Below are positions 5,701 through 28,447 of a DNA stretch of 64,000 nt, one piece after another. Within the stretch, counting starts at the first letter, position 1. Every line of letters begins with the position of its first letter. Made by a program: the position numbers and the translations under genes. The notes beneath the pieces were generated by a model. That model worked only from the letters and a program-made list of their open reading frames with translations, made no database searches and was not told the DNA's origin. The DNA is from a virus (lineage: Duplodnaviria; Caudoviricetes), in the IMG/VR virus record IMGVR_UViG_3300037067_006949, positions 61,427-125,426 of that record, one strand, 5' to 3'.

Positions 5701-5842
5701 ATCTTTTGAGAAAAAGAGACCAATAAAATTTGTAGATGGGAAATATGTAGAAGATGCAAATGGAGAATTCCAATGGTGGCTTACCAACTATGACATAATT
5801 TCTCCAGAAAAATTTAACAAGATATTGAAGGGAGAGAAATGA
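2750..5842 (+). CDS. dnaE: DNA polymerase III alpha subunit (phage C-family)
   Basis: PHP domain HLHSDFSLLD; RGSVSG; FERFMNAERVSLSDIDID; KLDILGL; AGGAG RBS. Confidence 0.95.
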   Translation: MNNYTIYHLHSDFSLLDSATKYDDYIYKAKESGMLSIGFSEHSSVFNWIKKKQKCDENEIKYIHGQEFYITLSLEERVRDNWHCILIAKNLDGIKELNRLSSIGYNRDGHYYYDPRISLQELITTSNNIIVTSACLGGILNSGNENVEKVFLDFMIDNKDRCFLEVQHHNNEEQFAYNKKLLDLSNHYGLRLIAGTDTHSLDKKHEKLRTILQKSKNINFPNEESWDLVFKTYDELVESYAVQNSLPKNVYMEAIENTNVMADMVEHFDLSLEYKYPKIYENSDEIFKEKVYEGLKNKGLGDNKDYIKRIEYETKAIAKNGAIDYLLLQEKITSWCRNNDIMPGYSRGSVSGCLCAYLLGITDIDSLKFNMNFERFMNAERVSLSDIDIDYPPDKREQVKEYIFNNLGLNCCDIVAFNTVAEKGSIRDVGRALEIPLSEINEISKNVGSWGGEEDKRKYPELFELSGQLEGVITSSGVHPCGVVTSTLDLEEELGTFTTSTDIRRISQVDMKGIDSVNFVKLDILGLDNIQIINDTCRLAGIERLNPDNVNFEDEKVWDDIMGNSIGVFQWESDFAHQTYKKLFSKETLKKIEEKTGKIDRLALLSMANGAIRPAGESYRDAMCEGEFKDNGHEALNEMLKSTMGYLVYQEDILRFLHEFCGYSMGKADVVRRGFAKKVGTEKFIPHIKSGFIKTMKEKYGTPEEESEEIVESFLTVIEDASLYLFSLNHSYPYSMIGYVCAYLRYYYKLEFVTTMLNINKDNIEKSATIIDYAKENKILIKSPKFRFSRSSYFFDRETNSIYKDLSSIKYLNSECGEQLYEAGKLKFESFVDLLVYIEENLKVNSRQLETLIKIKFFDEFGGNKKLLDVYKEFSSGKNKYTNKLKEETKAKRLEHIKEFEKETPNEFMNVLDQIYFEQDSLGYIQATYDGIDKRLIFVGSLDTKYAPRIEAYCLANGKISSLKLYRKTYDSNPFGGGEILFCKSFEKKRPIKFVDGKYVEDANGEFQWWLTNYDIISPEKFNKILKGEK

Positions 5843-6387
5843 AGGTTATTGACACAGAATTGCCAGAGGTAAAAATCCTTGAGCCAGAACCATTTATTGA
5901 TCACAGAGGATTTTTTATGAAAATTTTCAACGAAAAGTTTTTTGAAGAATATATCGCTCCGCTCAAATTTGTTGAAGAAGATCATTCTGGTTCATATCAC
6001 AATGTTCTTCGTGGATTGCATTATCAGATAAACAATCCACAAGGAAAATTGATAACCATTACAAGCGGAGAAATATTTGATGTTGCAGTAGACCTCCGAA
6101 AATCGTCTCCAAATTTTAAAAAATGGGTAAGTGTAGTTCTGTCTGATAAAAACAAAAGAGAAATTTGGATTCCACCTGGTTTTGCTCATGGATTTTATAC
6201 ATTAACACCATGGGCAGAGATTGTATATAGAACAACGGAATTTTATACGCCACAAAACGATAGAACGTTGTTGTGGAATGATCCAGAGGTAAACGTAAAG
6301 TGGCCCTTAATAAAAGACATTTTACCAGTATTATCCACAAAAGATGGCAATGGGAAGTTACTCAAAGACGCAGATTGTTTTGATTAG
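5839..6387 (+). CDS. rmlC: RmlC-family NDP-4-keto-6-deoxyhexose epimerase
   Basis: DHRGFF, NVLRGLHYQ, QGKL, IFDVAVDLRKSSP, IPPGFAHGF. Confidence 0.92.
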   Translation: MKVIDTELPEVKILEPEPFIDHRGFFMKIFNEKFFEEYIAPLKFVEEDHSGSYHNVLRGLHYQINNPQGKLITITSGEIFDVAVDLRKSSPNFKKWVSVVLSDKNKREIWIPPGFAHGFYTLTPWAEIVYRTTEFYTPQNDRTLLWNDPEVNVKWPLIKDILPVLSTKDGNGKLLKDADCFD

Positions 6388-6399
6388 GAGACATAACAT

Positions 6400-7113
6400 A
6401 TGACAAAAGTAATTCTATTGGCTGGAGGGAAAGGTTCTAGATTGAATGATCCAGCCCCGAAGCCATTAGTAAAAATTGGCGGAATACCACTGATCCAACA
6501 CGTAATGAACACCTATAATTACTTTGGATATAATGAATTTATTTTACTTACGGGTTATAGACATGAAGAATTTGAAAAATATTTCTACAATATCAATTTG
6601 CAATATTCCGTAAAACTTTTAGACACAGGCGAAAACACTGACACCGGAGAAAGAATTAGAAAGGCAAGAAGGTTTGTTGATGGCGAAATTTTTTGTTTGA
6701 GCTATGGAGATGGGTTAAGTGATGTTCATTTATCAGAAGTAGAACATGCATTTCGTTTGAATCGTATTAACGCAGATTTATTGATTACAACAGTTCATCC
6801 TCCAGAAAGATATGGTCTTATATCCCTTGAGAATAAGAATGATAGAGTTTCTAGGGTAATAGAATTTGACGAAAAACCAAAAAGAACAGATTGGATAAAT
6901 GGCGGATTTATGGTTTGTGGTAGCAATATATTTAATTATATTGAAGAGGGCGACGTTTTTGAACAACATAGTATACCTAGAATTGTCAAGGCACAAAGAC
7001 TTTTTGCATATAAACATGACGGAAGTTGGGGAAGCGTGGACACACAAAAAGATTTGAACACCCTTACAAGTTTATGGAATGAAGGTAAAGCATTTTGGAG
7101 GTCGAATGAGTAG
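6400..7113 (+). CDS. rfbF: Glucose-1-phosphate cytidylyltransferase
   Basis: LAGGKGSRL, PKPLVKIGG, DTGENTDTGER, YGDGLSDV, WINGGF; C-terminal LWNEGKAFW typical of RfbF. Confidence 0.88.
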   Translation: MTKVILLAGGKGSRLNDPAPKPLVKIGGIPLIQHVMNTYNYFGYNEFILLTGYRHEEFEKYFYNINLQYSVKLLDTGENTDTGERIRKARRFVDGEIFCLSYGDGLSDVHLSEVEHAFRLNRINADLLITTVHPPERYGLISLENKNDRVSRVIEFDEKPKRTDWINGGFMVCGSNIFNYIEEGDVFEQHSIPRIVKAQRLFAYKHDGSWGSVDTQKDLNTLTSLWNEGKAFWRSNE

Positions 7114-8035
7114 AGTTCTGGTTACAGGTGCATTCGGATTCGTTGGTCAATGGTTGGTAAAAGAATTACTAAAACAAGGAAACGAAGTAACTGTTGTGGC
7201 TCACGAAAACACGATGCCATTTCATGGTTGGGTTTCAAGAGATGTCAATGTGGAAAAAGGAGACATTAGGAGCTATAGCTTCTTGAAGAGAACCTTCGAC
7301 CAGAGCAAGCCCGATCTTGTTTTTCATTTGGCAGCACAAGCACTCGTAGAAGAAGCCCTAAAATCTCCATACGTTACAATGAAAACAAATGTAGGAGGAA
7401 CAACTAATCTTTTGGAATGTGCAAGAAATTATGGAAAATCAGATAGAATTGTAGTAGCCTCCAGCGATAAGGCATATGGAAATGAAAAATCTCCATATGA
7501 TGAAAATACATCGTTGAACGGAAGATTCCCGTATGATTGCTCAAAATCTTGCACCGATTTGATATCTCAATCTTACAGAGATACCTATGGTATGCCAATT
7601 TCAATCATGCGTTGTGGGAATATCTTTGGTGGAGGGGATTTCAATTGGAGCAGAGTTTTTCCAGAATCAATAAAATCGTGTTATGATCATAGGGCAATGA
7701 TTATCCGTAGTGATGGAAAATCTATGTTAAGAGACTACATCTATATAGAAGATGTTATTTCTGCATATCTATTTATATCTGGTCTTGATCATAATGAGGT
7801 TGCCAATGTTTCATACGGCAAAGCAAGAAGTGTGCTAGACATTTTACATACTGTTCAAGAAGAAACTGGTGTTTATTATGATCCACAAATAAAGAATACC
7901 GCAAAATGCGAAATCAACGTTCAATGTCTCAACGGAGACCACATCAAATCTTTGGGATGGAGTCCACAATATAATTTCGATGGAGGAGTAAAAGAAACCG
8001 TAGAGTGGTATTACGGTTACTTCGAGTCAATATGA
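7106..8035 (+). CDS. rfbG: CDP-glucose 4,6-dehydratase (extended SDR)
   Basis: VLVTGAFGFVG, FHLAAQALV, SSDKAYG, PYDCSK, RCGNIFGGGD; lies between rfbF and rfbH. Confidence 0.82.
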   Translation: MSRVLVTGAFGFVGQWLVKELLKQGNEVTVVAHENTMPFHGWVSRDVNVEKGDIRSYSFLKRTFDQSKPDLVFHLAAQALVEEALKSPYVTMKTNVGGTTNLLECARNYGKSDRIVVASSDKAYGNEKSPYDENTSLNGRFPYDCSKSCTDLISQSYRDTYGMPISIMRCGNIFGGGDFNWSRVFPESIKSCYDHRAMIIRSDGKSMLRDYIYIEDVISAYLFISGLDHNEVANVSYGKARSVLDILHTVQEETGVYYDPQIKNTAKCEINVQCLNGDHIKSLGWSPQYNFDGGVKETVEWYYGYFESI

Positions 8036-9303
8036 TAAAAAATACTTTACCAGATTTAATACCAGGTCGAGATTATTTGCCAGCGTCTAAAAAGTTAATT
8101 ACTAGAGAAGATATGTTGACCGTGATGGATTCCGTTATGGATATGAATTTTACAGAAGGAAGGTACAATTCATATTTTCAAGAATTATTGGCGAAAGTTT
8201 GCAACAGGAAATATGCGGTTACTTGCAATTCAGGTTCTTCTGCAAACTGGTTAGCAATTACGTCACTAAGAAAAGTTTATAGTTATATAAAAGACGGAGA
8301 TGAGATTATAACTGTTGCGTGTGCATTTCCCACAACAGTAAATCCTATTTTGCAGAATAATTTAGTTCCCGTTTTTGTAGATATGGATTATGAATCCCTT
8401 AATATTGACGTTGATTTGATTGAAAGCGCAATAACCAATAAAACAAGGGCAATAATGATTGCGCATACGCTTGGCAATCCAGTTGATATTCGCGTAATTG
8501 AGTCTATTTGCGCGAAATACAATTTACATCTTATATTTGATTGCTGTGATTCCTTGGGTGGATTTTATGATGGTAAACCCATCGGAAGCTTCGGAGAAAT
8601 GGCAACATTCAGTTTTTATCCTGCCCACCAAATAACGGCAGGGGAGGCTGGAGCGGTAGTCACAAATGATCCTAAGCTGAACTTAATGCTCAATAGCCTA
8701 AAGTCATGGGGAAAAAATTGCTTTTGCCAAACCGGAGAAGATAATGCATGTGGTCATAGATTTGATAAACAATATGGCGATCTTCCATTAGGATACGATC
8801 ACAAATATGTTTATTCAGAAATTGGCATGAACCTAAAGATAACCGACATGCAAGCTGCTCTTGGATTTAGTCAATTAAAAAAACTTGAAGATTTCAAAGT
8901 TGCCAGACAAAGTAATTATAATGTTCTCGCAGAAAAAATGAAAGAATTAGATTTATTTTTTGTTCAAACTAAAACACTTGAGAAGTCAGACCCGTCATGG
9001 TTTGGCTATCCTTTGATTTTCAGATCAGACAATAATGCGACAAATAAGTTAATAAATTATCTAGAGAAATATTGTAGAATCGGTACAAGAAGATTGTTTG
9101 CTGGAAATCTATTGAGGCATCCGGCTTATAAAAAACTTCCACAAGACGCTTATCGAGTTGTTGGCGAACTTAAAAATACAGATAGAATTATGAACAACGT
9201 ATTTTGGGTCGGAGTTCATCCAAGCTTGAACAAAGACTGTATGGATTATATATTTACCTCTATTTACAATTTCTATATCTTAGGATACAATGGGCGAGAA
9301 TAA
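8032..9303 (+). CDS. rfbH: CDP-4-keto-6-deoxyglucose 3-dehydrase E1 (RfbH/DdhC)
   Basis: NSGSSAN; SFYPAHQIT with His instead of the aminotransferase Lys; Fe-S motif CFCQTGEDNAC; LPLGYDHKY; TRRLFAGN. Confidence 0.92.
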   Translation: MIKNTLPDLIPGRDYLPASKKLITREDMLTVMDSVMDMNFTEGRYNSYFQELLAKVCNRKYAVTCNSGSSANWLAITSLRKVYSYIKDGDEIITVACAFPTTVNPILQNNLVPVFVDMDYESLNIDVDLIESAITNKTRAIMIAHTLGNPVDIRVIESICAKYNLHLIFDCCDSLGGFYDGKPIGSFGEMATFSFYPAHQITAGEAGAVVTNDPKLNLMLNSLKSWGKNCFCQTGEDNACGHRFDKQYGDLPLGYDHKYVYSEIGMNLKITDMQAALGFSQLKKLEDFKVARQSNYNVLAEKMKELDLFFVQTKTLEKSDPSWFGYPLIFRSDNNATNKLINYLEKYCRIGTRRLFAGNLLRHPAYKKLPQDAYRVVGELKNTDRIMNNVFWVGVHPSLNKDCMDYIFTSIYNFYILGYNGRE

Positions 9304-9988
9304 CGTACTGGTATTGGGCGATGGTCTTTTAGGCTCTGAACTAATCAGACAAACGGGTTGGAATTATTTGAGCAGAAGAAAGGACGGGATAAATTTTAAC
9401 AATCTGGAAACATACTTCAAGTTTACGTATGGATATGATACAATTATAAATTGCATAGCCTATACGGAAGTAAATTCGAATGAGAAAAAAGAACACATTC
9501 TTACCAATTTCAAATCTGTAGTAACCCTAGCGAATTATTGTAATCAAGTAGACAAAAAATTAGTTCATATAAGTACAGATTACGTCTATTCAAATTCAAA
9601 ACCTGATGCGTCTGAAGAAGATATTCCATCAAATTGTACTAACTGGTATACATATAGCAAAATCCTAAGTGATGGTTATATAGAGGCATTCTCGCAAAAA
9701 TACCTACTGATCAGAACGTCTTTCAAGCCACGCCCATACCCACATCCAAAAGCAACAATTCAAGTTGGTAACTTCGGGTATGTGGATGAAATAGCATCTC
9801 TTATCATAAAGCTTGTGAGAGGAAACGCCAATGGAGTATTCAATGTAGGTCTTGAAAAATCGACTATGTTTGACTTTGCATCCAGAACAAGAGAAGTAAC
9901 GATGCATGAAAAAAATCCTGTAGAATCTATGCCAGTAGATATTAGCATGAACATTACAAAGATGAAGGAGTTTTTAGATGAAGATTAG
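9290..9988 (+). CDS. RmlD-like NDP-4-keto-sugar reductase
   Basis: VLGDGLLG, INCIAYT, HISTDYVY, YTYSK (YxxxK), LIRTSF. Confidence 0.82.
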   Translation: MGENNVLVLGDGLLGSELIRQTGWNYLSRRKDGINFNNLETYFKFTYGYDTIINCIAYTEVNSNEKKEHILTNFKSVVTLANYCNQVDKKLVHISTDYVYSNSKPDASEEDIPSNCTNWYTYSKILSDGYIEAFSQKYLLIRTSFKPRPYPHPKATIQVGNFGYVDEIASLIIKLVRGNANGVFNVGLEKSTMFDFASRTREVTMHEKNPVESMPVDISMNITKMKEFLDED

Positions 9989-10673
9989 TATCGCAATCCC
10001 TTGTTATGAAATGCATGGAGTTGGGGCGGAATGTTTGGAATTTTCCTTTTCTAAAATAAAAGATCAGACATTCAAAGATTATCAGGTTGTGGTATCAGAC
10101 AGTTCAAATGACGATAAAATACAAATTTTATGTGGAAAATGGAAAGATGAATTTGATTTAAAGTATGTCAAAAGTACAGAATGTGCCGGAAGCCCCACGT
10201 CCAACTTCAACAAGGTCATAAAGAATTGTGATGGAGAATGGATAAAGCTATTATGTCTTGATGACTTTTTTCTTTATAAAAGTTCATTGCAACGCATTGC
10301 AGATGCAATAGACGAAAATTATAGTTGGATTGTAACCGGATATGATCATACTTATGACAGGGTAAACTTTGAAAGATTTCATTTTCCTCAAATAAATCCT
10401 CAGATTTATATCACGAATACGATTGGAAGTCCTAGTTGCGCAGTCATAAAGAACATAGAAGGACTGCCTGAATTTGATAACAATCTCATCTATGCTTTCG
10501 ATTGCGAATTCTATTATAATATGATAAAAAAATATGGTAATCCAAAACTTTTATTTGATCCAACCGTAGCAACATTACTTAGTAAAGACAGCTTAACTTC
10601 AACAGATGCAACACAAGAATTGATAAACAAAGAAAATGAGTATATTCTCAGGAAGCATGGATTTGCCACATGA
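9978..10673 (+). CDS. Glycosyltransferase family 2
   Basis: KISIAIPCYE, VVVSDSS, LCLDD, IGSPS. Confidence 0.85.
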   Translation: MKISIAIPCYEMHGVGAECLEFSFSKIKDQTFKDYQVVVSDSSNDDKIQILCGKWKDEFDLKYVKSTECAGSPTSNFNKVIKNCDGEWIKLLCLDDFFLYKSSLQRIADAIDENYSWIVTGYDHTYDRVNFERFHFPQINPQIYITNTIGSPSCAVIKNIEGLPEFDNNLIYAFDCEFYYNMIKKYGNPKLLFDPTVATLLSKDSLTSTDATQELINKENEYILRKHGFAT

Positions 10674-11326
10674 AAAAACAATTGCCAGACGTTACACTCA
10701 TTGCCTATACATCAAGTGACTTAGAATCGACCATTTTATCTCTATCTTATTGCGCAAGGGACTTTGATTTTGGGGCAATAAAAATTATATCCCACGAAGA
10801 GCCAGCCCATACATACAAGGGGATCACTTATGAAAAGGGGGATAAAATAAATGGCATAAACGATTTCAACAGATATATGTTTTTAGAACTTGGAAAGCAT
10901 GTAGAAACTAGTCATTGCTTATACATACAACACCATGCATTTATCATAAACCCCGAATTGTGGAATGACAATTGGTTGCAATATGATTATATCGGCGCTC
11001 CGTGGGAAGTCATTCCGAATATATATATTGCAAACAATGGAGAAACGGTAAGAGTTGGCAATGGTGGATTTTCTCTTCGTAGCAAAAAATTGTTAGACCT
11101 ACCAAAGAAAATGGGATGGGATTTACGTCAAGAGCAAGGTTGGTACAATGAAGATGGCAATATATGTTGCTATTATAGAAAAGAAATGCTTGAAAATGGA
11201 ATAAAATACGCACCCATTGAAATAGCATCCGTATTTTCGTTTGAAAATTTTGTTCCAGAAAACATTGGGCTAGATTATTTTGGATTTCATAGGAACTTTC
11301 CTCCATCACAAAGGGCACATGAATAA
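10670..11326 (+). CDS. DUF5672-like putative glycosyltransferase
   Basis: YDYIGAPW...VGNGGFSLRS...NED...FGFH signature. Confidence 0.75.
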   Translation: MKKQLPDVTLIAYTSSDLESTILSLSYCARDFDFGAIKIISHEEPAHTYKGITYEKGDKINGINDFNRYMFLELGKHVETSHCLYIQHHAFIINPELWNDNWLQYDYIGAPWEVIPNIYIANNGETVRVGNGGFSLRSKKLLDLPKKMGWDLRQEQGWYNEDGNICCYYRKEMLENGIKYAPIEIASVFSFENFVPENIGLDYFGFHRNFPPSQRAHE

Positions 11327-12122
11327 AACTTTTGGATGGGCGACACCACCCAATGATGTCATGCAACAATATATCAACAAATGTAAATTGTTTTGTATTG
11401 ATGACAACGAATTCAATAAATTTCGCAGAGACAAAGATTATACAAAAATATTAGAGGGAGGAGAATTTGAAACAGGAAGAATTAGCCTAGAATATATAAA
11501 AATAAATCATAGCGACAAACTAAAATTGATCTCAGAAAAATTGATAGAATTTAAAGAAAACGATGTTTACGGCTCTCCCATTATACATAACTTTGAAATT
11601 TTTGGAAATATTTGCCCAAGTACAATAAAATATGTAAACAACGCCTTAGACATTGATGCATTGATAGGCGATAATAATGTAAGGAACATATTAGAAGTCG
11701 GAGGCGGATATGGTGGTCTATGTAAGGTTTTGAGTTCCCTGATTGACTTTGAGAAATATATTATGATTGACCTTCCAGACGCAGTAAGTTTATGCAAAAA
11801 ATATTTAGATCATTTTGATAATATAAAAAATAAAATTGAATATATATCTTGTGACGATCTGGATAAAATAGGTAATATTATAGATGTAGACTTATTTATT
11901 AGTGACTCATCATTGGCTGAATGCGATATAGAAACACAAAATTTTTACGTTGATAACTTATTAAAGAAATCAAAATTAGCCTATTTGGTGTACAATACTA
12001 TGCATTGCGGATTTACAAACCAATATTGCAATATAATAGATTCAATAAACAAAGATTTTAAAATATCAGAATATAGAATCAATGGAAACATAATGCTATC
12101 AATGGAAAAAATATATGAATAA
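11319..12122 (+). CDS. Putative sugar O-methyltransferase (SAM-dependent)
   Basis: ILEVGGGYGGLC SAM-binding motif, IDLP, DLFIS..SLAEC. Confidence 0.75.
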   Translation: MNKTFGWATPPNDVMQQYINKCKLFCIDDNEFNKFRRDKDYTKILEGGEFETGRISLEYIKINHSDKLKLISEKLIEFKENDVYGSPIIHNFEIFGNICPSTIKYVNNALDIDALIGDNNVRNILEVGGGYGGLCKVLSSLIDFEKYIMIDLPDAVSLCKKYLDHFDNIKNKIEYISCDDLDKIGNIIDVDLFISDSSLAECDIETQNFYVDNLLKKSKLAYLVYNTMHCGFTNQYCNIIDSINKDFKISEYRINGNIMLSMEKIYE

Positions 12123-12777
12123 ATTGAAAACGTTTTTTGTGGTATCAGAATATTGGAATAACATATCATGGATATATGATTACACAGACAACTATATAAT
12201 TTATGATAAGAGTAATAGTATACAAAATGACGATAAGGTTATAAAACTTGAAGACGTTGGATACAACATATATGATTACTGTCACTTTATCGTAAATAAC
12301 TATGATAGTCTTCCCGATTTAACGGCTTTTCTTGAGGGCAATCCATTCGATCATTGCAAGAAAGAGGAGTTTGATAAACTGATTCGAAGTAATTCTTTCG
12401 CCCCAATAGAATATTATGGAAAATATCCTGCCAATGTTTTTGAGCAAAGAGACGAAAACGGCGGATTTATGGAGATAAATAATAGTTGGTATATTCAGGC
12501 TCACATAAAATCTTTCGGATCAAGAGTAAACAGGTTCTTTTCCGATTACAATGATTTCCTTGATGAAATGTTTGATAATCCAGAGCATCCAAGATGGATA
12601 AGATTTGCGCCTGGCGGTCAATATGTAGTTCCCAAAAATAACATTCTTTATTATAGCAAAGATTTTTATAGCAAGATAATGAAGTTCGTTGACTATTGTG
12701 ATTTGCCATCAGAAGCCCATATAATTGAAAGAGCATTATATTATATATTCACAAACAAATGGAGGGAAAGAAAATGA
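12115..12777 (+). CDS. DUF3431-like protein (glycosyltransferase-associated)
   Basis: HFIVNNYDSLPD..FLEGNPFDH, FAPGGQYVV, AHIIER. Confidence 0.7.
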   Translation: MNKLKTFFVVSEYWNNISWIYDYTDNYIIYDKSNSIQNDDKVIKLEDVGYNIYDYCHFIVNNYDSLPDLTAFLEGNPFDHCKKEEFDKLIRSNSFAPIEYYGKYPANVFEQRDENGGFMEINNSWYIQAHIKSFGSRVNRFFSDYNDFLDEMFDNPEHPRWIRFAPGGQYVVPKNNILYYSKDFYSKIMKFVDYCDLPSEAHIIERALYYIFTNKWRERK

Positions 12778-13619
12778 TATCTATTGACCTTACGGGCAAT
12801 ATGGGAGATCACTTAATTCGTTATACAATTTGCCGTAGCGTTGCTGAAAAAAATGGTTACAAATTTGGCATAAATCCTATCTCCAGCCACGATTATTATG
12901 GTGGTAAACCGCAAATGACATTCTTCAAAGGAATTGATTACGGAGAACCAAATAATACTCCATATGGTCAGTTGCCTCCAGAAACAGATAATGTATGGAC
13001 AGAAAAAAGAGAACTATATCCAGATCACACTTATCATCCATTTCAACCAGACATATTCGACGTCAGCCCAAATACAAAACTAGTAATTTTTTGTGGTCAA
13101 GATGCGCATTATCTTGAAAAAGAAAGGGTAAAAAAGTGGCTTGAAGTTAAAGATGATGTAGCTCTTGAGTCGCAACAAATACTAAATGACAACAATGTCG
13201 AATTAGATGATAATCTGTGCATCATTAGTTGTAGAGGCGGAGAATATAAGGGAATCCCAGGTTTGTTTCTGACAAAAAATTATTGGGATAATGCCATAAA
13301 TTTTATGTTGAAAAGAAATCCAAAAATGAAATTTATGGCTCTTACTGAAGACCCCGAATTCTACAAAACATATTTTGATTTTCCGGTGAATCATTTCAGT
13401 ACGAGTTGTGACTATTATGCTATTCACAATTGCAAGAACATAATCATAGCGAACAGTGGATTTAACATATTTCCATTGTGGACAAGCAACCAGAATCCTT
13501 ATATAATTGCCCCCAAATATTGGTCAATTCACAATTATGGTAATACATGGGCAAACAGCGACATGGAATCTTGGGGATTTAACTTTATGGATAGAGAGGG
13601 CAATGTAAATGAAGCGTAA
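12774..13619 (+). CDS. GT11-like (alpha-1,2-fucosyltransferase family) glycosyltransferase
   Basis: GNMGD (cf. GxLGNQ), SCRGGEY (cf. HxRRGDY), YWDNAI, IIANSGF, IIAPKYW. Confidence 0.75.
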   Translation: MISIDLTGNMGDHLIRYTICRSVAEKNGYKFGINPISSHDYYGGKPQMTFFKGIDYGEPNNTPYGQLPPETDNVWTEKRELYPDHTYHPFQPDIFDVSPNTKLVIFCGQDAHYLEKERVKKWLEVKDDVALESQQILNDNNVELDDNLCIISCRGGEYKGIPGLFLTKNYWDNAINFMLKRNPKMKFMALTEDPEFYKTYFDFPVNHFSTSCDYYAIHNCKNIIIANSGFNIFPLWTSNQNPYIIAPKYWSIHNYGNTWANSDMESWGFNFMDREGNVNEA

Positions 13620-14490
13620 GATTTATTGTTGTTTCTGCTTCTTCAATGAACTAGAATTATTGAAATTAAAGTTGGAAGAACTATGGGATACAGTTGATTA
13701 TTTTGTAATTTCTGAATCAGACGTTACGCATAGTGGAATCTCAAAACCACCACACTTTTTTGAAAACAAAGATAAGTTTGATAAATTCAAAGATAAAATT
13801 ATTTATCAAGCAGTCAGAGACACACCAAATGATTTTATCAATCTAAAAACCGATCCTAAAAAAGACGACGCAACCAATCTTGTAATACAAAGGGTCATTG
13901 ATGGAGACTGGTGGGATCACTCAGTTCAAAGTTACGGAAGAGATACCTTCCAAAAGGAAAGCCTGATCAGACCTCTAATATCATCAAATTGCCAAGACGA
14001 TGATTTGGTTATATTGGGCGATTTGGACGAGATACCGAAAGCCAGTGTTATCAAACAAATTGCAGAAGATTACGACGATGATGAAGTATTTCATCTTCAA
14101 CATAAGTTTTGCTGGTATTACCTAAACATTGAAAAAACCAATGAAGTGTGGTATGGAAGCATTGTAACATCTTTCAAGAGGTTCAAAGAGCAAAGCTTTT
14201 GCGAAATGCGAACACGCAAGGCTGGAAATTTTGTAGATAACGCTGGTTGGCATTTTACCTATATGAATGGGGCGGATGCAATAAAAACAAAAATAGAAAG
14301 CTTCGGAGAGCAATCTCTAAACCTTCCACAAGTAAAAGATGGAATTACTGAGAACGTCGAAAACTGCCTGATAAATGGGCACGACCTATATAATAGACCA
14401 GCAAGATTCAAGGTTGTTCCAATTGAATACGATACCATGCCAAAGTATTTGGTCGATCATCAAGACGAATTTAGACATATGATTTGGTGA
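13609..14490 (+). CDS. GT17-like glycosyltransferase
   Basis: FFNELELLKLKLEEL, VDYFVISES, GDLDEIP, GWHFTY. Confidence 0.85.
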   Translation: MKRKIYCCFCFFNELELLKLKLEELWDTVDYFVISESDVTHSGISKPPHFFENKDKFDKFKDKIIYQAVRDTPNDFINLKTDPKKDDATNLVIQRVIDGDWWDHSVQSYGRDTFQKESLIRPLISSNCQDDDLVILGDLDEIPKASVIKQIAEDYDDDEVFHLQHKFCWYYLNIEKTNEVWYGSIVTSFKRFKEQSFCEMRTRKAGNFVDNAGWHFTYMNGADAIKTKIESFGEQSLNLPQVKDGITENVENCLINGHDLYNRPARFKVVPIEYDTMPKYLVDHQDEFRHMIW

Positions 14491-14493
14491 GAT

Positions 14494-15138
14494 ATGAAAT
14501 TAGACAACATTTTTGAGATGAGTTATTGTATAAACCTTGACAAAAGGAAAGATCGTTGGGAAGCATGTGATAAAGAATTCTATAAGTTGAACTTCTATCC
14601 AGAAAGATTCAGCGCAATAGAAAATACCAACCCAGTTCTAGGATGTTATCTGTCTCATTTAGAAATATTAAAAAGAGCCAGAGACGCAAACAAAAGCGTA
14701 TTGATATTCGAAGACGACGTTGAGATAATCAATTTTGAAGAAAAGCTAATTGAAAAGGCTCTGGACGAATTATATTATATGGATTGGTGGATGCTTTACC
14801 TAGGCGCAAATTTGATGCGACCATGTTATGAAGTGACAGATCACTTGGCACAACTTACTCATGCACAAAGCACACACGCATATGGAGTTAATAAAAAGTA
14901 TTTGCCACAAATTATAAATTTCATCGAAAACAACCACACATTCATCGACGTTATTTATGCCGAAGGGATCGTGCCTCAAACTCCATGTTTCATTACAATT
15001 CCTATGATGGCAATACAAAGAACTGATTTCTCAGATATAGAAAATCGAGAAATGAATTATGATCTTCCAATCCAGAGATACAAACGGCAACTAGTCAGAA
15101 AAAAGAAGGAATTTAAATATGATAACAATTCTGTTTAG
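14494..15138 (+). CDS. GT25-like glycosyltransferase
   Basis: YCINLDKRKDRW, GCYLSHL, VLIFEDD, MLYLG, THAY. Confidence 0.85.
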   Translation: MKLDNIFEMSYCINLDKRKDRWEACDKEFYKLNFYPERFSAIENTNPVLGCYLSHLEILKRARDANKSVLIFEDDVEIINFEEKLIEKALDELYYMDWWMLYLGANLMRPCYEVTDHLAQLTHAQSTHAYGVNKKYLPQIINFIENNHTFIDVIYAEGIVPQTPCFITIPMMAIQRTDFSDIENREMNYDLPIQRYKRQLVRKKKEFKYDNNSV

Positions 15139-15934
15139 CAAAGATCGCGCTATGCAATGCGATTTGGCTATAAACTCATTGAAAGAAAATTGCATTGGAG
15201 AACATAAGGTTCACGTCCTCTATGCTTGTTCTAATAAAAGACATGAAGAATCTTATAAAACTTTGATGAACGAGCATCCGCAAATATTCTTTCATAAAGA
15301 AAATAACTTCAAGTTGGATTTGTTAGAATTGGTAAAAGATCAAGATTATGTAATGTTTTTAGTCGATGACAATATATTTACCAATAACTTTAATGTATAC
15401 CACATCTTACGTTTGCTAAACGCTCATCCAGAGTCAATCGGATTCAGCCTAAGACTAGGGGTAAATACCACATATTGCTACTCGTTAGATCAGGAACAAG
15501 AAATCCCTCCGTGTGTGAAGTTGGCTGACAATATTTTGATGTTCGGATGGGGCGAAGCAAAAGCTGATTTCAATTATCCCTTGGAGTTGTCAAGCAGCAT
15601 CTACAAAGTCAAAAATATATTACCAATATTAAATAATACAGATTATAGTAATCCTAATGGCTTGGAATGGAATATGGCGTGTAGTTCTCCAATGTTCAAA
15701 TCTACTAAACCCATGCTTATGTGCTACGAACAAAGTGTAGCCTTTTGCAACCCAATTAACAAAACACAAAGAGTCAACAACAATAGAAGCGGAACCAATA
15801 TTCAATATTCAATAGATTCACTCTTGACAAATTTTGAAAAGCGTGGTAAGATTATATATTCCCCATTCAAAGGTTTTATTTCTAATGCTTGTCATCAAGA
15901 AGTTGATATTATCATAAATTATAAGGAGAGATAA
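15119..15934 (+). CDS. Putative GT-A fold glycosyltransferase
   Basis: ILFSKDRAMQ N-terminus, FLVDD acidic motif, position within the GT cluster. Confidence 0.55.
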   Translation: MITILFSKDRAMQCDLAINSLKENCIGEHKVHVLYACSNKRHEESYKTLMNEHPQIFFHKENNFKLDLLELVKDQDYVMFLVDDNIFTNNFNVYHILRLLNAHPESIGFSLRLGVNTTYCYSLDQEQEIPPCVKLADNILMFGWGEAKADFNYPLELSSSIYKVKNILPILNNTDYSNPNGLEWNMACSSPMFKSTKPMLMCYEQSVAFCNPINKTQRVNNNRSGTNIQYSIDSLLTNFEKRGKIIYSPFKGFISNACHQEVDIIINYKER

Positions 15935-16278
15935 TGGAAGACGATAATAAAGCTAGTTTTATTGTGGTGGTTCAAAACGATGAATTGACTATTGATACCG
16001 TAATGAAAGATATTCTTGAAGATTTCATGCCTGATGACGAATTGATTGTTGTACTAAATAATAGCACAGATTCAAGCGAGTCAAAAATTGATAAATATTT
16101 GCCAAAACTTCCTAATACTTATACAAAAATTATTCATGCAGATTCAAGAGAAGATAGGGCGTTCGATATTAAAGAGGCTTTGGATGTTGGCAAAGAAAAT
16201 TCAAGTAATGATTTGAATTTCATTATTTATGGAACGGAATATAACCCCGTAGAGTGGACAAAGGATGACAATAATTGA
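15934..16278 (+). CDS. Short GT2-like protein (N-terminal Rossmann half only)
   Basis: SFIVVVQNDE...ELIVVLNNSTDSS resembles the GT2 N-terminus; only 114 aa; no downstream DxD motif seen. Confidence 0.5.
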   Translation: MEDDNKASFIVVVQNDELTIDTVMKDILEDFMPDDELIVVLNNSTDSSESKIDKYLPKLPNTYTKIIHADSREDRAFDIKEALDVGKENSSNDLNFIIYGTEYNPVEWTKDDNN

Positions 16279-17041
16279 ACAATTAACGGATAAAGATTTA
16301 AAAAGATTTTGGTCTAAAGTTGATAAAAGAGGAGAAAACGATTGTTGGGAATGGAGGGGGTGCAAAACAGCAAAAGGAGCTGGAATATTTTGTGCATCAA
16401 TTAATAATATCAATAAAAGCATTACTGCTCATCATGTTTCCTATTATATTGTAAGTGGAATAGATGCATTTGATAAGCCAATGGAAAAATATTGCAACAC
16501 AATAGGATGTTGCAACCCGAATCATTATGGGATAAAAATTAAAAAAACCATAAAAGATTTTAAAATAGATGAAAAATTTATGCAAAGGTTTTGGAAAAAA
16601 GTAAGAGTCGGCAACCACAATGGTTGCTGGGAGTGGATGGCATCAAAGGACTATAAGGGCTACGGACAATTTAGTGTAAATGGGAAAAGTATTCGATCTC
16701 ATAGAATTTCATATATGATAAAAAATGGAATTGGTAGCATTCCATCTGGAATGTCTGTTTGTCATAGTTGTGATAATAGATTATGTTGTAATCCAAAGCA
16801 TTTGTTTCTAGGAACATATGAAGATAATAACCATGACAGACATAAAAAGGGAAGAGACGGTTCTGCAAAAGGGGAAGCTCATGGTGCTGCAAAGTTAAAT
16901 AATGAAAAAGTTTTGGAAATAAGGTATTTATTACAATTGTCTTCTTTATCAAGAACAGAAATTGCAAAATTATATAGTGTAAGTAAATCTACGATAAATA
17001 GAATATCAACTGGAGAAGGATGGAAAAATATAACCATATGA
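16265..17041 (+). CDS. HNH homing endonuclease with duplicated HNH module and C-terminal HTH
   Basis: Two RFWxKV...CWEW units, VCHSCDNRLCCNPKHLFLGT..DN; HGAAKL...VSKSTINRI. Confidence 0.88.
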   Translation: MTIIEQLTDKDLKRFWSKVDKRGENDCWEWRGCKTAKGAGIFCASINNINKSITAHHVSYYIVSGIDAFDKPMEKYCNTIGCCNPNHYGIKIKKTIKDFKIDEKFMQRFWKKVRVGNHNGCWEWMASKDYKGYGQFSVNGKSIRSHRISYMIKNGIGSIPSGMSVCHSCDNRLCCNPKHLFLGTYEDNNHDRHKKGRDGSAKGEAHGAAKLNNEKVLEIRYLLQLSSLSRTEIAKLYSVSKSTINRISTGEGWKNITI

Positions 17042-17874
17042 GTAGAAATAATAATAAAAGATATGCAAAAAATTCTAATCCTCTTATTTCCGTCCTAATT
17101 CCTTGTTACGGAAGAAAAGAATGGATTCCCCTTACAATTGAATCTTTGCTAAACCAGACTTATGCTAATTGGGAGGGAATATTCGTACAAGACGGAGGCG
17201 AAGATATTGATGATGTTCTCGCCAAATATCCAGATAAAAGATTCAAATTGATCAAACACGAAAAAAACAAAGGGCTTCCGGCGGCAAGAAATACCGCATT
17301 AAGAAACTGCAATGGTGAATATATTTCCCTTCTCGATAGTGACGACATTTATATGCCATTAGCATTAGAATTTAGATTGTCTATGCTAAAAAAATATAAT
17401 GTTGAATGCGTTTATACCAGAGCGTTACAAAACATATTTGAAACTAAATTTAATGAATCTGGTCAAAAATATTATCAACTAGTTCATCAACAATTATACT
17501 GGAACCAAGAATTTGATAGAGATAGGTTGTTGGCCGTTAATTTATGCCCTTGCAATTGTACTCTTATCTCTCGCAAAGCATGGGAAGATTCTGAATATTG
17601 GTTCGATGAAGAATTAAAGACGGGAGAAGATTTTGATTTTTGGATAGCAATATCTAGAAAATATGATTTTAAAAGTTTAAGATTACTAGATTGTGAAGAT
17701 TCATATCGCACCGAATCTGGTGGTCAAATGACAAGTAATAGAAATTTTTCAGCAGACTTGCCAAGAATTTTTAAACGATGGAGGAATACGGCAACTAATT
17801 TGCCTCTCGTCATTGAAATGCAAAATAGTATCTTGAAACAGTCGGGAATCAATCCAGAAGATTACGACCTATGA
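17038..17874 (+). CDS. Glycosyltransferase family 2
   Basis: ISVLIPCY, VQDGG, NKGLPAARN, LLDSDD, FDEEL..GEDFDFW. Confidence 0.9.
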   Translation: MSRNNNKRYAKNSNPLISVLIPCYGRKEWIPLTIESLLNQTYANWEGIFVQDGGEDIDDVLAKYPDKRFKLIKHEKNKGLPAARNTALRNCNGEYISLLDSDDIYMPLALEFRLSMLKKYNVECVYTRALQNIFETKFNESGQKYYQLVHQQLYWNQEFDRDRLLAVNLCPCNCTLISRKAWEDSEYWFDEELKTGEDFDFWIAISRKYDFKSLRLLDCEDSYRTESGGQMTSNRNFSADLPRIFKRWRNTATNLPLVIEMQNSILKQSGINPEDYDL

Positions 17875-17954
17875 CGCCCCTTATATGGTTTTATGGAGGA
17901 GTATTGTCTTTAATAATTAGCGCAATCATTGCATCAAAACATCAAAGAAAGTGA
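17871..17954 (+). CDS. Putative 27-aa single-pass membrane microprotein
   Basis: MTPLIWFYGGVLSLIISAIIASKHQRK; ATGA overlap with the GT2 stop; fills the gap up to the RBS of the next gene. Confidence 0.45.
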   Translation: MTPLIWFYGGVLSLIISAIIASKHQRK

Positions 17955-17965
17955 GGTAGGATTTA

Positions 17966-19066
17966 TTGAAAGTTTTATACGTATATGCGGATCAACCCCA
18001 TGAGCTTAATTGTTCGGTTTTCAACTGTTTCAACCCAACAGATGCAATAAATAAAACGGGAGTTCACACAGCAAGTTATATACACGTAGATCAGTTCGTT
18101 AAAAATGAACCAGAAACACAAAAACTTTGTTCTGAAGCCGACATTATTATTATAGAAAGAAATTTTTTCCAAGATGTTTCAACTATGGAGGTTTTTTGGT
18201 GGGTTAGAGGAAAAATTTTAGCTGGTATTTGGGATGACGGATATAGCGTAATGCATCAAAGAAATCCGGCATATCCATTTTGGAATAATGGCGAAATAAA
18301 ATATGTTTTAAAAGACGATCCAAAGGTAGAGCACGTTGGTTATATGTCTCCAAAGCCATTGACCCAAATGAAATATTCTCTCCATTTTTTAAAGGGTGCT
18401 CAAGTGGTTTCGGACGCTCTAGTAGAAGACTGGTCGCCTTTTGTAGATTGTTACAAGATCAACAATCACATTGTTATTGACCGTTATACCAACGTAACAG
18501 AGCCATTATATCCTCATGATGGAATTTGGATAGGCTGGACGGGTTCTTTGTCACATAGAGATTCATTTGAATCGTCCGGTTTGCTTCGTGCTTATCGTAA
18601 AATTTGCAAGAATTTTCCCAATGTAAAAGTTTTGATTACTGGCGACAAAAGAATATATGATGAATTGGATGTTCCTAACACAAGAAAAATGTTTAGCGGA
18701 TATGTACCAGCAGAGCAATATCCATCATTGATTAAAAGTCTCGATATTTGTACAATTCCATTAGCCGGAGAATATGATAAGAGGCGTAGCCAAATCAAAC
18801 CATTAGAATGCCTAGCACTCAAAGTTCCATTTGTAGCAACCAACTTTCCGAACTACAATCATCTTGCTCCATATGGAGTATTCACAGAAAATGGTTGGGA
18901 AAATTGGGAAAACGCTATTGCAGAATCGTTAGAAAAACTTCCAGACCTTCGAGAAAAAGCAGTTGAAGTTGGGTATCCATTCGCACTAACGCAAGATATT
19001 GATCTACACGTGCAAGAAAGAATTGACCTGTATCAGATGTTGATAGACAAACCGTATAGATATTAG
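17966..19066 (+). CDS. GT-B (GT4-like) glycosyltransferase
   Basis: IGWTGSLSH, LDICTIPL...RSQIKPLECLALKVPFVAT (C-terminal GT-B motif); TTG start with GAGG RBS. Confidence 0.8.
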   Translation: MKVLYVYADQPHELNCSVFNCFNPTDAINKTGVHTASYIHVDQFVKNEPETQKLCSEADIIIIERNFFQDVSTMEVFWWVRGKILAGIWDDGYSVMHQRNPAYPFWNNGEIKYVLKDDPKVEHVGYMSPKPLTQMKYSLHFLKGAQVVSDALVEDWSPFVDCYKINNHIVIDRYTNVTEPLYPHDGIWIGWTGSLSHRDSFESSGLLRAYRKICKNFPNVKVLITGDKRIYDELDVPNTRKMFSGYVPAEQYPSLIKSLDICTIPLAGEYDKRRSQIKPLECLALKVPFVATNFPNYNHLAPYGVFTENGWENWENAIAESLEKLPDLREKAVEVGYPFALTQDIDLHVQERIDLYQMLIDKPYRY

Positions 19067-19073: not shown

Positions 19074-19601
19074 ATGAAAAATATTATTATAGCCGTAGAT
19101 TGCGATGACGTGTGCATTAACTTGATAGACCGTTGGCTGTACGAATACAATAGTGACTTTGAAGACAACCTAACGAGAAATGACATAACCGATTGGGATG
19201 TACAAAAATTTGTCAAACCCGAATGTGGCACAAAAATATACAGATATATCGAAGATAAAACGATGTATGATTATTGCCAACCAGTTGCGGATTCATTAGA
19301 AGGCGTAAATCTTTTACGAACCATGGGTAGAGTTATTTTTGTTACTCACCCCACAATTGGAACTGCCGGAAGAAAATATGTCTGGCTGAAAGAAAACGGA
19401 TATATTGATTCAATGGAAGATTATGTAGAAGCAAAAGATAAAAGTCTAATCAATTTTGACTTCCTGATTGACGACAATTATCACAACATTTGCCGTTACA
19501 AAAATAGTTTCTTATTCAACCAACCATGGAATGAAAAATATTTCTATGCGCAACGCATAAAAAACTGGAGAGAATACATCGACGCAAGGAAGTCCAAATG
19601 A
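19074..19601 (+). CDS. 5'(3')-deoxyribonucleotidase (HAD, NT5C-like)
   Basis: IAVDCDDV, DKSL...LIDD, FNQPWN. Confidence 0.88.
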   Translation: MKNIIIAVDCDDVCINLIDRWLYEYNSDFEDNLTRNDITDWDVQKFVKPECGTKIYRYIEDKTMYDYCQPVADSLEGVNLLRTMGRVIFVTHPTIGTAGRKYVWLKENGYIDSMEDYVEAKDKSLINFDFLIDDNYHNICRYKNSFLFNQPWNEKYFYAQRIKNWREYIDARKSK

Positions 19602-22122: not shown

Positions 22123-22955
22123 AAAATAATAAAATTTCAGACAATGAATTAATTGATTTTTATATAAATAAAAACTATTCTATTTTAAAAATATCTAAAA
22201 TAACAAAAATTTATACAGAATGGATTTCTAAAAGGTTAAAAATACTTGATATAAAAATAAGAAACGGAAATGATACAAGTTATTATGAAAATAGAAAAAA
22301 AATATTTTACCCATGCGTTATATGTGGAAACCCAAAAACTATAGAATATCACAAATCTGGAAATTTTTATTGTTCAAGACACATTTCACAACTGGATGAA
22401 TATGGAAAAATATTACCTAGAACAAAATTTGATAAAAATGAAATACATATTCTTGGAAAATATGTTTCAATGGATTTATATAATTCTAAAAATAATAAAG
22501 TTGGAGAAAGTTTATTTGATCTAGAGGACTTAGAAGTTTTAATAAAATATAAATGGCAAAAAGATAAACAAGGCTATGTTGTTACATTAATAAAAGATGA
22601 CGAAACGGGAGATAAGCACAGATTGACAATGCATAGATTTTTATTAAATCCACAAAAATATGAGATTATTGATCATATAAATTGTGACAAATCAGACAAC
22701 AGAAAAGAAAATCTTAGAATTGTTGACAAAAGTAAAAATGAAATGAATAAACCTTTGAGGAATGATAATTCTTGTGGTTATAGAGGAGTTTATTGGAATA
22801 AAAACAAAAATTTATGGATTGCAGAAATGAACTTGAATGGTAAAAAGATTTTAAATAAAGGATTCAAAAATAAAGAGGATGCGATTTTATGCAGAGAAGA
22901 ATCTGAGGTAAAATATTTTGGAGAATATAGATACAATGATGCAAATAAAAATTAA
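22119..22955 (+). CDS. HNH homing endonuclease with C-terminal AP2-like domain
   Basis: MHRFLL...IDHINCDKSDNRKENLR; GYRGVYW...W.AE; markedly AT-rich. Confidence 0.88.
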   Translation: MKNNKISDNELIDFYINKNYSILKISKITKIYTEWISKRLKILDIKIRNGNDTSYYENRKKIFYPCVICGNPKTIEYHKSGNFYCSRHISQLDEYGKILPRTKFDKNEIHILGKYVSMDLYNSKNNKVGESLFDLEDLEVLIKYKWQKDKQGYVVTLIKDDETGDKHRLTMHRFLLNPQKYEIIDHINCDKSDNRKENLRIVDKSKNEMNKPLRNDNSCGYRGVYWNKNKNLWIAEMNLNGKKILNKGFKNKEDAILCREESEVKYFGEYRYNDANKN

Positions 22956-27899: not shown

Positions 27900-27911
27900 C
27901 GGTTTGCCTCC

Positions 27912-28256: not shown

Positions 28257-28258
28257 TG

Positions 28259-28447
28259 TTACCCTCCTTCCTTGACAGGCGTTTCTTGAGCCTGTTTTTG
28301 TTCGTTTAATTGTTGAATGACCTGTTGCAACGTATATATTGAGTTATAAAGCAACTGAAGATTTGGCATCCCCTTCACTTCTAATTGATTCAACGTATTG
28401 TAGGTGTCAACAAGTTTTTTAAATGTTTCAAAATCTAAATTGTACAT
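28259..28447 (-). CDS. Small coiled-coil protein, possible tail chaperone
   Basis: 62 aa, Q-rich helix, GGAG RBS. Confidence 0.5.
   Translation of the reverse strand: MYNLDFETFKKLVDTYNTLNQLEVKGMPNLQLLYNSIYTLQQVIQQLNEQKQAQETPVKEGG

Follow-up and report, generated by a model that had tools for sequence, protein, structure and literature searches.

A stretch of tailed-phage DNA of 64,000 nucleotides (IMG/VR record IMGVR_UViG_3300037067_006949, positions 61,427–125,426; referred to as the window) carries, at 5839–19066, an island of sugar-nucleotide, glycosyltransferase and methyltransferase genes. We propose, with a probability of roughly 0.6, that the island encodes a wholly cytoplasmic O-glycosylation of the phage's own tail, fibre and decoration proteins at the motif S-G/A-S. 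Virion proteins were taken as the probable acceptor because the tripeptide Ser-Gly-Ser (SGS) is strongly over-represented only in phages that possess the core of the island. The window is the right half of a record of 125,426 bp, with a CheckV completeness of 91%. The source phage is uncultured, and all the evidence in this analysis is computational.

Families were called on the proteins of the window with Pfam and NCBIfam profiles, and PHROG was also used for the transferases. The core, referred to as the trio, consists of the following genes (aa, amino acids):

15119–15934, + strand: GT-A-like protein of 271 aa, without a Pfam family (called from an atlas model)
17020–17874, + strand: GT2b glycosyltransferase (PF00535, E 1.1e-29)
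17966–19066, + strand: GT4 glycosyltransferase, GT-B retaining type (PF13692 and PF00534)

Phages were sorted into positives and negatives by the presence or absence of the GT4. The trio was always present in eight further viral contigs, while the other island genes varied. These three were the only enzyme-type genes that occurred in all eight other positives and in none of the eight negatives.

When the 20 virion proteins of the phage were compared with within-protein shuffles, 38 SGS tripeptides were counted against 6.7 ± 2.5 expected. Over the whole genome there were 54 against 14.6 (z 10.4), and SGS was the top tripeptide, the next having a z of 4.9. About 47 of the 54 sites lay in virion-module proteins. 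The sites were distributed over at least 13 proteins, with mixed codons and no tandem repeats. The candidate acceptors and other virion genes with SGS were:

44116–45141, − strand: tail-tube-like virion protein, candidate acceptor, 4 SGS (phrog_2729, virion structural protein)
46544–47572, − strand: 342-aa virion-module protein, candidate acceptor, 7 SGS
25706–26893, − strand: fibre-like 395-aa protein, candidate acceptor, 8 SGS
27486–34435, − strand: distal tail genes with SGS (PHROG tail annotations), namely a 137-aa protein (3), a 114-aa protein (2), a 684-aa protein (3), a 1033-aa minor tail protein (4) and Dit (1)
47581–53874, − strand: head-proximal small proteins with SGS, of 156 aa (2), 182 aa (3) and, at 53500–53874, 124 aa (3)

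No SGS was present in the capsid-like protein, terminase or tape measure, and only one in the portal.

In each of the nine core-positive genomes no tripeptide was more over-represented than SGS (z 4.5–14.9), the eight further GT4-positive contigs giving z values of 11.6, 9.2, 7.0, 5.9, 4.5, 11.3, 9.2 and 14.9. In the eight GT4-negative phages the excess was at most marginal (z 0 to 2.8). The two groups differed at p = 3e-4 in a Mann-Whitney test that ignores phylogeny. When pooled, the positives had 386 SGS against 106 expected (z 27.5), compared with 100 against 69 for the negatives. SAS came second in the pooled positives (z 11.2), and SGT, TGS and TGT were not enriched. The sites were typically preceded by Thr or Ser (position −1) and followed by Val, Thr or Ile (position +4), with charged residues depleted, and in the positives they fell mostly in tail, fibre and decoration proteins. 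In the relative L091, which has the core together with a heptose cassette, the fibre genes had 13 SGS against 2.5 expected, a count reached by none of 1000 shuffles; no homology between these fibre genes and the virion proteins of the present phage could be detected.

Four of the eight negatives had homologous tail tubes (31–46% identity), as diverged as those of the positives are among themselves, and one of the four had the closest DnaE of all (56%). No island gene was found in these four, and no GT2 in three of the four screened negatives related by DnaE. Homologues of the tube were present on at least 125 IMG/VR contigs. The tube orthologues had one to four SGS in every positive and none in any negative. 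Similarly, the orthologues of the 342-aa protein had two to eight in the positives, and 0, 0, 0 and 1 in the negatives. Orthologues of the capsid-like protein, portal and terminase had about zero in all phages. The columns of the SGS sites were only partly shared; therefore, the sites turn over. In the tube tree the island was gained or lost at least twice and the motif followed each event, as in the contig G013 (z 9.2) and its sister G028 (z 1.4). The contig G017, with little beyond the trio, had a z of 11.3. Virion proteins had been the favoured acceptor of an earlier, sequence-only reading of the window. This choice now has comparative support, in that the conserved core co-occurs perfectly with SGS enrichment.

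The island is an unbroken + strand run of 17 tightly packed open reading frames fused to dnaE. From dnaE to GT4, 14 of the 17 junctions overlap, that between the dnaE stop and the RmlC start by 4 nucleotides, which bears out the mostly overlapping genes and the direct dnaE coupling described earlier. It contains a cytidine diphosphate (CDP)-3,6-dideoxyhexose-type pathway of five sugar-nucleotide enzymes, one O-methyltransferase, about nine intact proteins of glycosyltransferase fold or family, a DUF3431 protein and one dead GT2 remnant. Upstream are:

2673–2701, + strand: sigma-70-like promoter candidate (TTGACA-17-TAAAAT with TG, 11/12 matches; a consensus match only)
2750–5842, + strand: dnaE, DNA polymerase III alpha (Pfam PHP, DNA_pol3_alpha, finger and HHH_6 domains)

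The candidate is the best promoter-like site of the + strand and lies directly upstream of dnaE, and no terminator-like site was found on that strand between 3719 and 16737. The transcript through the island thus likely starts at this site, judging from the DNA sequence. No RNA runs were present among the listed sequencing runs that contain the island.

The genes for sugar-nucleotide synthesis and tailoring were assigned as follows (NDP, nucleoside diphosphate; PMP, pyridoxamine phosphate):

5839–6387, + strand: RmlC-type 3,5-epimerase (TIGR01221, 237 bits, cutoff 156; PF00908, E 6.7e-62)
6400–7113, + strand: sugar-1-phosphate nucleotidyltransferase (best model the glucose-1-phosphate cytidylyltransferase TIGR02623, 184 bits, below the cutoff of 300)
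7079–8035, + strand: NDP-hexose 4,6-dehydratase (best model the CDP-glucose type TIGR02622, 181 bits, below the cutoff of 278; PF01370 and PF16363)
8005–9303, + strand: E1/RfbH, CDP-6-deoxy-4-hexulose 3-dehydrase of the PMP and 2Fe-2S type (NF011936, 548 bits, cutoff 423)
9290–9988, + strand: short RmlD-like 4-ketoreductase, 232 aa (PF04321, E 6e-22)
11280–12122, + strand: sugar O-methyltransferase, NanM type (TIGR04371, 79.6 bits, cutoff 44)

The RmlC-type gene was assigned, on its profile matches, as the epimerase of the dideoxyhexose pathway. Homologues of the nucleotidyltransferase in syntenic contigs showed 60–64% identity. E1/RfbH, catalogued as a protein of 423 aa, probably has its true start near 8032. 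It aligned over its full length with the E1 of Yersinia (PDB 3BCX; 50% identity, E 2.9e-127), and in this alignment a His stands in place of the lysine that binds pyridoxal phosphate, while the iron-sulfur cysteines (C-x-C-x7-C and CC) are retained. Hence, the protein is a true 3-dehydrase and not an aminotransferase. The RmlD-like reductase is 235–239 aa long in relatives. The terminal epimerase and 4-reductase are of the AscE/AscF type, with the RmlC equivalog above its cutoff and the RmlD-like match (E 6.6e-23) below its own. By analogy with AscE/AscF, the product should be an L-configured 3,6-dideoxyhexose of the ascarylose type.

The remaining genes of the island, other than the trio, are:

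9978–10673, + strand: GT2a glycosyltransferase, of the variable outer set (PF00535)
10670–11326, + strand: DUF5672 protein (GT-A fold by an AlphaFold2 model, pLDDT 94.4)
12115–12777, + strand: DUF3431 protein of unknown role, kept in the island (PF11913, 39 bits, cutoff 25)
12759–13619, + strand: GT11-like protein, a weak family match (PF01531, E 0.004; phrog_2644 glycosyltransferase, E 5.5e-12)
13609–14490, + strand: GT17 (PF04724, E 3.3e-27)
14494–15138, + strand: GT25 (PF01755, E 5.7e-11)
15934–16278, + strand: GT2 remnant, 114 aa, ending ahead of the DxD motif
16265–17041, + strand: HNH homing-endonuclease gene (PF13392, E 1.2e-8, with a helix-turn-helix tail)

All the gene families named in the sequence-only reading were recovered at their positions by Pfam and NCBIfam. 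Its list of glycosyltransferases requires one correction: a gene counted as a transferase is the dead GT2 remnant, and the HNH gene at 16265–17041 had been overlooked. The remnant aligned only with residues 7–95 of a 262-aa GT2 at the same place in L091, and no C-terminal GT2 piece was found downstream of it. The junction of the HNH gene and the remnant was identical, with zero differences, in landfill and groundwater contigs, and was confirmed in three of four runs. HNH or GIY-YIG genes occur at similar spots in the islands of relatives. The HNH gene is an insertion in the island that reduced one GT2 to the remnant. A second HNH gene, with an AP2 domain, was seen at 22110–22955 between the genes of class II ribonucleotide reductase (RNR) and dUTPase; the two together suggest that homing endonucleases have invaded the early operon extensively.

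The model of DUF5672 shows a predicted GT-A glycosyltransferase fold with a single Rossmann-like domain. VIA-align gave Z values of 12.2 for LgtC, 11.9 for glycogenin and 11.2 for PBCV-1 A64R, and Z 11–12 was obtained over about 190 of the 218 residues for LgtC, glycogenin, BoGT6a and A64R. DUF5672 has more than 5000 homologues, its atlas clusters are 89–100% viral, and it almost always adjoins dideoxyhexose genes. The atlas model of the 271-aa protein matched a viral 'glycosyltransferase' cluster (TM 0.97) and part of GT-D-containing Bacillota proteins (TM 0.89). The GT4 model (pLDDT 95.5) is that of a generic retaining GT-B enzyme, as predicted, with two Rossmann-like domains and, C-terminally, the signature for binding a nucleotide sugar; Foldseek gave a probability of 1.0 to PimA, MshA and BshA, and PglA was also matched. 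R274, K278 and E281 were invariant in 44 GT4 homologues. Foldseek of the GT4 was also tried as a pointer to the class of acceptor, and was set aside as it returned only generic GT4 enzymes. The solved relatives of the GT2s include TarS, TarP, PglI and GalT1 (PDB 5HEA). PDB sequence searches with DUF5672, DUF3431, the 271-aa protein and GT4 gave nothing significant, and the PHROG matches of the transferases, where there were any, carried no label more specific than 'glycosyltransferase' or 'GtrB-like'. No relevant literature was found on DUF5672, DUF3431, a Ser-Gly-Ser sequon or phage sequons.

A hydropathy scan detected no transmembrane segment in any island protein and, except for the tape measure, no large multi-transmembrane protein in the 125-kb record. 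With profile searches added, no flippase, polymerase, ligase, priming transferase or Gtr protein was found in that record, in agreement with what had been noticed from the window, and the larger genes outside the window have functions other than undecaprenyl-phosphate-dependent polysaccharide assembly or export. From the all-soluble set a soluble acceptor had been deduced earlier. The lack of transmembrane segments stands, but the reasoning was incomplete: it does not alone imply a soluble acceptor, because transferases that use undecaprenyl-linked acceptors are also free of such segments.

The island might remodel the host envelope. Its soluble transferases would work on the cytoplasmic side of the membrane, where they would add sugars to a host precursor of O-antigen, teichoic acid or a secondary cell-wall polymer that is carried on undecaprenyl phosphate. 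Priming, flipping and ligation would be left to host enzymes, and the altered surface would block superinfection or keep progeny off debris. O-antigen and teichoic-acid glycosyltransferases are mostly peripheral enzymes of this kind, without transmembrane segments, and 3,6-dideoxyhexoses are classic O-antigen sugars. PimA, PglA and MshA as the best solved relatives of GT4, TarS, TarP and PglI among those of the GT2s, and a probable expression with early or middle genes are likewise consistent with such a role, and similar cyanophage clusters have been interpreted as cell-surface modification (PMC12801897). We nevertheless consider it unlikely. It leaves unexplained why S-G/A-S in virion proteins tracks the island core over 9 + 1 phages; none of the priming, flipping, polymerising, ligating or Gtr functions was found in the record; and the closest homologues are phage-like (70–76% identity) compared with about 50% for bacterial RfbH.

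The acceptor could instead be another soluble one, i.e., host proteins or a small molecule modified for takeover or evasion of defence, the SGS excess being an unrelated trait of the lineage. The solubility of the enzymes, their presumed early expression, the glycosylation of small molecules by the GT4 relatives MshA and BshA, and the glycogenin-like fold of DUF5672 would all fit. However, the motif association would then need a coincidence over at least two independent gain or loss events, and the swapping of outer cassettes fits an exposed, selected surface better. About ten transferases with a rare-sugar pathway, moreover, exceed any takeover modification known to us. This possibility therefore appears distinctly improbable.

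The relatives of the island were sought in isolates and in metagenomes. Megablast of the whole island against GenBank phages gave no match, and tblastn found no GT4 homologue in 50,697 GenBank phage records. The 271-aa protein had only two matches in these records, both in uncultured 735-kb phages. Single-protein pattern scans of IMG/VR with GT17 and RfbH gave no relatives. Metagenomes yielded 76 homologues of GT4 and a tight group of RfbH homologues, 70–76% identical, on phage-like contigs, bacterial RfbH being only about 50% identical; hence, the island was not copied recently from a host locus. The contigs L045 and L047 kept the core order RmlC, transferase, dehydratase, RfbH, reductase, GT2, DUF5672, DUF3431. 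Homologues of DUF3431 were present in L045, G013, G015, G016 and G023, and those of the GT11-like protein showed 58–65% identity. GT2a, 31% identical to a cyanophage homologue, was found in six of the eight other core-positive genomes and in none of the eight negatives. The core and many outer genes were found at 33–70% identity in at least nine phage genomes from many samples, and near-identical copies of the island turned up in several studies, in metagenomes of groundwater, landfill and aquatic origin.

In L091 the GT4 occupies the same genomic place, ahead of the kinase and RNR genes and the lysis cassette, and a heptose-type cassette (GHMP kinase, nucleotidyltransferase, SIS isomerase, HAD phosphatase and transaldolase) replaces the dideoxyhexose genes. 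The lysis cassette itself, at 23419–25551 on the − strand of the window, comprises a GH25 lysin and two small transmembrane proteins and is kept in L091 at 35–43% identity. The dnaE junction recurs in at least one relative, but other contigs have the island ahead of the replication genes or within a set of early genes. Thus the placement inside a replication operon, part of the sequence-only reading, holds for this phage and at least one relative and is not a property of the island. Among 37 loci of DnaE relatives, none had island genes near dnaE. The structural proteins of the DnaE relatives were too diverged for orthologue comparison, and they served only as distant negative controls. As far as gene content tells, the island is a modular element spread among phages, with a fixed trio and a variable sugar and transferase part. 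We would give slightly less than even odds to the wider proposal that an abundant uncultured lineage of groundwater, landfill and aquatic habitats practises modular virion glycosylation, with the sequon S-G/A-S, the trio as a fixed base, and exchangeable cassettes for 3,6-dideoxyhexose, heptose and methylation.

The same comparisons bear on whether the island is passive cargo, that is, a captured bacterial polysaccharide locus in decay with no role for the phage. The GT2 truncated by the HNH insertion is a sign of this kind. But every other reading frame is intact, with tight coupling between neighbours; many outer genes, along with the core, persist across the nine or more genomes at the identities given above, near-identical copies recur in landfill, groundwater and aquatic metagenomes, and the closest homologues are phage-borne. 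Near-identity to a bacterial locus, which the sequence-only reading had named as the mark of passive cargo, was not observed. We find this explanation hardly credible.

Some further observations were made on the relatives. One RfbH/E1 homologue (P0151; 923 aa) carries an intein with a LAGLIDADG endonuclease; inteins usually reside in conserved, important genes. On the P0147 contig a 553-aa gene of the GmrSD type (type IV restriction) lies directly upstream of the glycan island. Heptose-pathway genes were found in L091 and on the P0147 contig, and a transaldolase gene inside the glycan island in L091 and in the cyanophages RN05-S (L006) and S-H68 (L007). This hints that the phage 'auxiliary metabolic' transaldolase may feed sedoheptulose-7-phosphate into glycan synthesis. 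An NT5C-type 5'-nucleotidase gene (19074–19601) adjoins GT4 and is present in seven of the eight other positives and none of the eight negatives; a link to the island, such as removal of nucleotide by-products, is possible. The same distribution (7/8 and 0/8) was seen for a 263-aa protein without a Pfam family (G000:C1:5401-6192, − strand), encoded outside the window. Also outside the window, on the − strand, is a 917-aa protein (G000:C1:6170-8923) that matches the eukaryote-type RNA-dependent RNA polymerase PF05183 (E 1.1e-18) and occurs in seven of eight island-positive and seven of eight island-negative relatives.

The position of the island between dnaE and the genes for nucleotidase, dNMP kinase, RNR and dUTPase raises the possibility of DNA hypermodification, in which an oligosaccharide is placed on a hydroxylated phage base against restriction, as in T-even phages, RB69 and the 5-hydroxymethylcytosine glycan clusters. 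Glycans of phage DNA reach three sugars and are made by transferases resembling those of lipopolysaccharide (LPS) or teichoic acid (bioRxiv 10.1101/2023.12.21.572611; PMC13326640). The distribution of NT5C and a divergent ThyX-like gene (23 bits, below the Pfam cutoff) may be added in its favour; the latter lies outside the window at G000:C1:58427-59002 (locus L050), with homologues at the same place in relatives. But the described routes to phage DNA glycosylation begin with a ThyA homologue, or with a C5-methylase and a TET/JBP dioxygenase (PMC13326640; bioRxiv 10.1101/2023.12.21.572611), and no match to PF00303, PF12851 or PF00145 was found in the 125-kb record, 91% complete. The earlier statement that the window has no base hydroxymethylase or TET/JBP gene thus extends to the whole record, and the DNA alternative loses ground. 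The phage, in addition, already has a Mom-family gene (E 9e-28) and three N6/N4 methyltransferase genes outside the window (G000:C1:43334-43966, 35187-36305, 42012-43043 and 46939-48156), and seems to guard its own DNA by base methylation and Mom-type modification. In relatives the island lies away from the nucleotide genes, in one of them beside the GmrSD-type gene, and the association with a protein motif would go unexplained. Taken together, a DNA target is highly improbable.

For glycosylation of virion proteins the following mechanism may be proposed. The island would be transcribed along with dnaE, ahead of the late genes. Its five enzymes would convert a hexose-1-phosphate to an NDP-3,6-dideoxy-L-hexose of the ascarylose type, probably CDP-linked, by nucleotidyl transfer, 4,6-dehydration, 3-deoxygenation by E1, RmlC-type epimerisation and RmlD-type reduction, the electron donor of E1 (E3) being supplied by a host reductase. 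GT4 would be the enzyme that starts the chain on a protein serine, and the trio would start and extend a short inner chain, drawn from ordinary host NDP-sugars, on the serine of S-G/A-S in folded or assembling virion proteins. GT2a, DUF5672, DUF3431, the GT11-like protein, GT17, GT25 and the O-methyltransferase would provide the outer residues, including the dideoxyhexose and the methyl group. Relatives that keep the trio and swap the sugar cassette would carry different outer glycans on a common base.

Several points weigh against this proposal. The genomes were selected by the presence of GT4, and the positives share a structural module, so that the association rests on few independent events (at least two). 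Some of the SGS columns reflect no more than common descent. The tripeptide could also serve this lineage as a structural turn, or be the target of another co-varying gene, e.g., that of the 263-aa protein or NT5C. The 362-aa capsid-like protein encoded within 47581–53874 has zero SGS. The cyanophage RN05-S, which shares DUF5672 and RfbH, shows no clear excess (z 2.7), and the motif therefore does not go with the DUF5672/RfbH module. On the side of the enzymes, the nucleotidyltransferase and the dehydratase both score below the curated cutoffs (184 against 300 and 181 against 278 bits). A search of the 125-kb record for E3, the flavin and 2Fe-2S reductase known as RfbI or AscD, gave no match to PF00175 or PF00111, so the E1 step would have to draw on a reductase of the host. 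Finally, the fold of GT4 is generic, and among solved structures the enzymes closest to it modify lipids or small molecules rather than proteins.

To our knowledge, mycobacteriophages are the only phages in which experiments have demonstrated glycosylation of the virion, and there the enzyme sets are small and no sequon is defined. If the proposal is true, the glycosylation machinery of a tailed phage can match that of giant viruses in complexity, and S-G/A-S would be the first phage protein-glycosylation sequon inferred from genomes alone, with acceptor sites readable straight from sequence. Relatives would vary their coat sugars by cassette swaps, as 'glyco-serotypes' under diversifying selection, which would bear on host recognition, resistance to proteases and environmental damage, and antibody shielding in therapy. 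DUF5672, with its many viral homologues, and an unannotated GT-A family would gain a function, and the 'LPS gene' clusters of marine cyanophages a testable explanation. The trio and its short motif could also become a tool for cytoplasmic glyco-tagging.

Among known systems, prophage serotype conversion of the Gtr and TarP types is similar in using a phage-borne GT2-family glycosyltransferase. Gtr, however, works in the periplasm and depends on two membrane proteins, GtrA and GtrC, and none of these membrane parts is in the island; TarP works alone, on wall teichoic acid. Both types are encoded by genes of lysogenic conversion. The CDP-ascarylose/3,6-dideoxyhexose pathway of Yersinia and Salmonella O-antigens (AscA-F, RfbF/G/H/I) shares with the island E1, a cytidylyltransferase-like enzyme, a 4,6-dehydratase, an RmlC-type epimerase and a reductase. 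It differs in that the island has no E3 and no O-antigen assembly or export genes, and its first two enzymes fall below the equivalog cutoffs.

T4-like cyanophages (P-SSM2, S-SCSM1, S-SCSM2R, and also S-B05, S-H68 and RN05-S) have 'LPS/cell-wall' clusters that are 17 kb long and likewise all-soluble, with RfbH-like, RmlC, DUF5672 (42–46% identity), GT2, GT17, GT11, GT25 and methyltransferase genes. These clusters, whose function is described as unresolved (PMC12801897), have no homologue of the GT4 core. They belong to myoviruses of cyanobacteria, and the published readings favour host-surface or DNA targets.

The glycosylation of serine-rich-repeat adhesins of Gram-positive bacteria (GtfA/B, Gtf3, dGT1, GalT) offers a parallel, in which a GT4-family GT-B enzyme starts serine O-glycosylation in the cytoplasm and soluble GT-A enzymes extend the chain. 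The match of the 271-aa model to part of GT-D-containing Bacillota proteins and that of the GT2s to GalT1 (5HEA) are points of likeness. The GT4, however, has no sequence match to any solved chain, GtfA included. The adhesin acceptors are long Ser-rich repeats exported by accessory Sec, whereas dispersed tripeptides in folded virion proteins are proposed here.

Chloroviruses and mimiviruses (e.g., PBCV-1 with A64R) also have their own soluble transferases, methyltransferases and rare-sugar pathways. Their glycans are assembled cytoplasmically on structural proteins, at sites that are non-canonical, as is proposed for the island. They are, however, giant viruses of eukaryotes, and their sugars (rhamnose, viosamine or bacillosamine) differ from the 3,6-dideoxyhexose expected here. 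The match of DUF5672 to A64R does not indicate a specific kinship, because it is tied with those to the generic GT-A enzymes LgtC and glycogenin.

The virion glycosylation of the mycobacteriophages Che8, Corndog and Myrna was reportedly described by Freeman et al. in 2023 (Cell Host Microbe 31:1216). In these phages soluble transferases of viral origin, in some cases accompanied by methyltransferases, reportedly attach O-linked sugars to structural proteins of the virion, the tail tube among them, in the cytoplasm. The island has the same combination of soluble phage glycosyltransferases without membrane assembly or export parts. Mycobacteriophage systems have two to four transferases and are not known to include a sugar-nucleotide pathway. 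The core of the island is not homologous to them, because GT4 has no homologue in the GenBank phage records. The mycobacteriophage sugars are reported on the C-terminal tails of capsid and tube subunits, whereas those proposed here would be on internal S-G/A-S sites of many tail and fibre proteins, with none in the capsid-like protein. By analogy, the system would work like the glycosylation of mycobacteriophages and of chloroviruses and mimiviruses, on a scale far larger than that of the mycobacteriophages, with its own rare-sugar pathway and an internal sequon.

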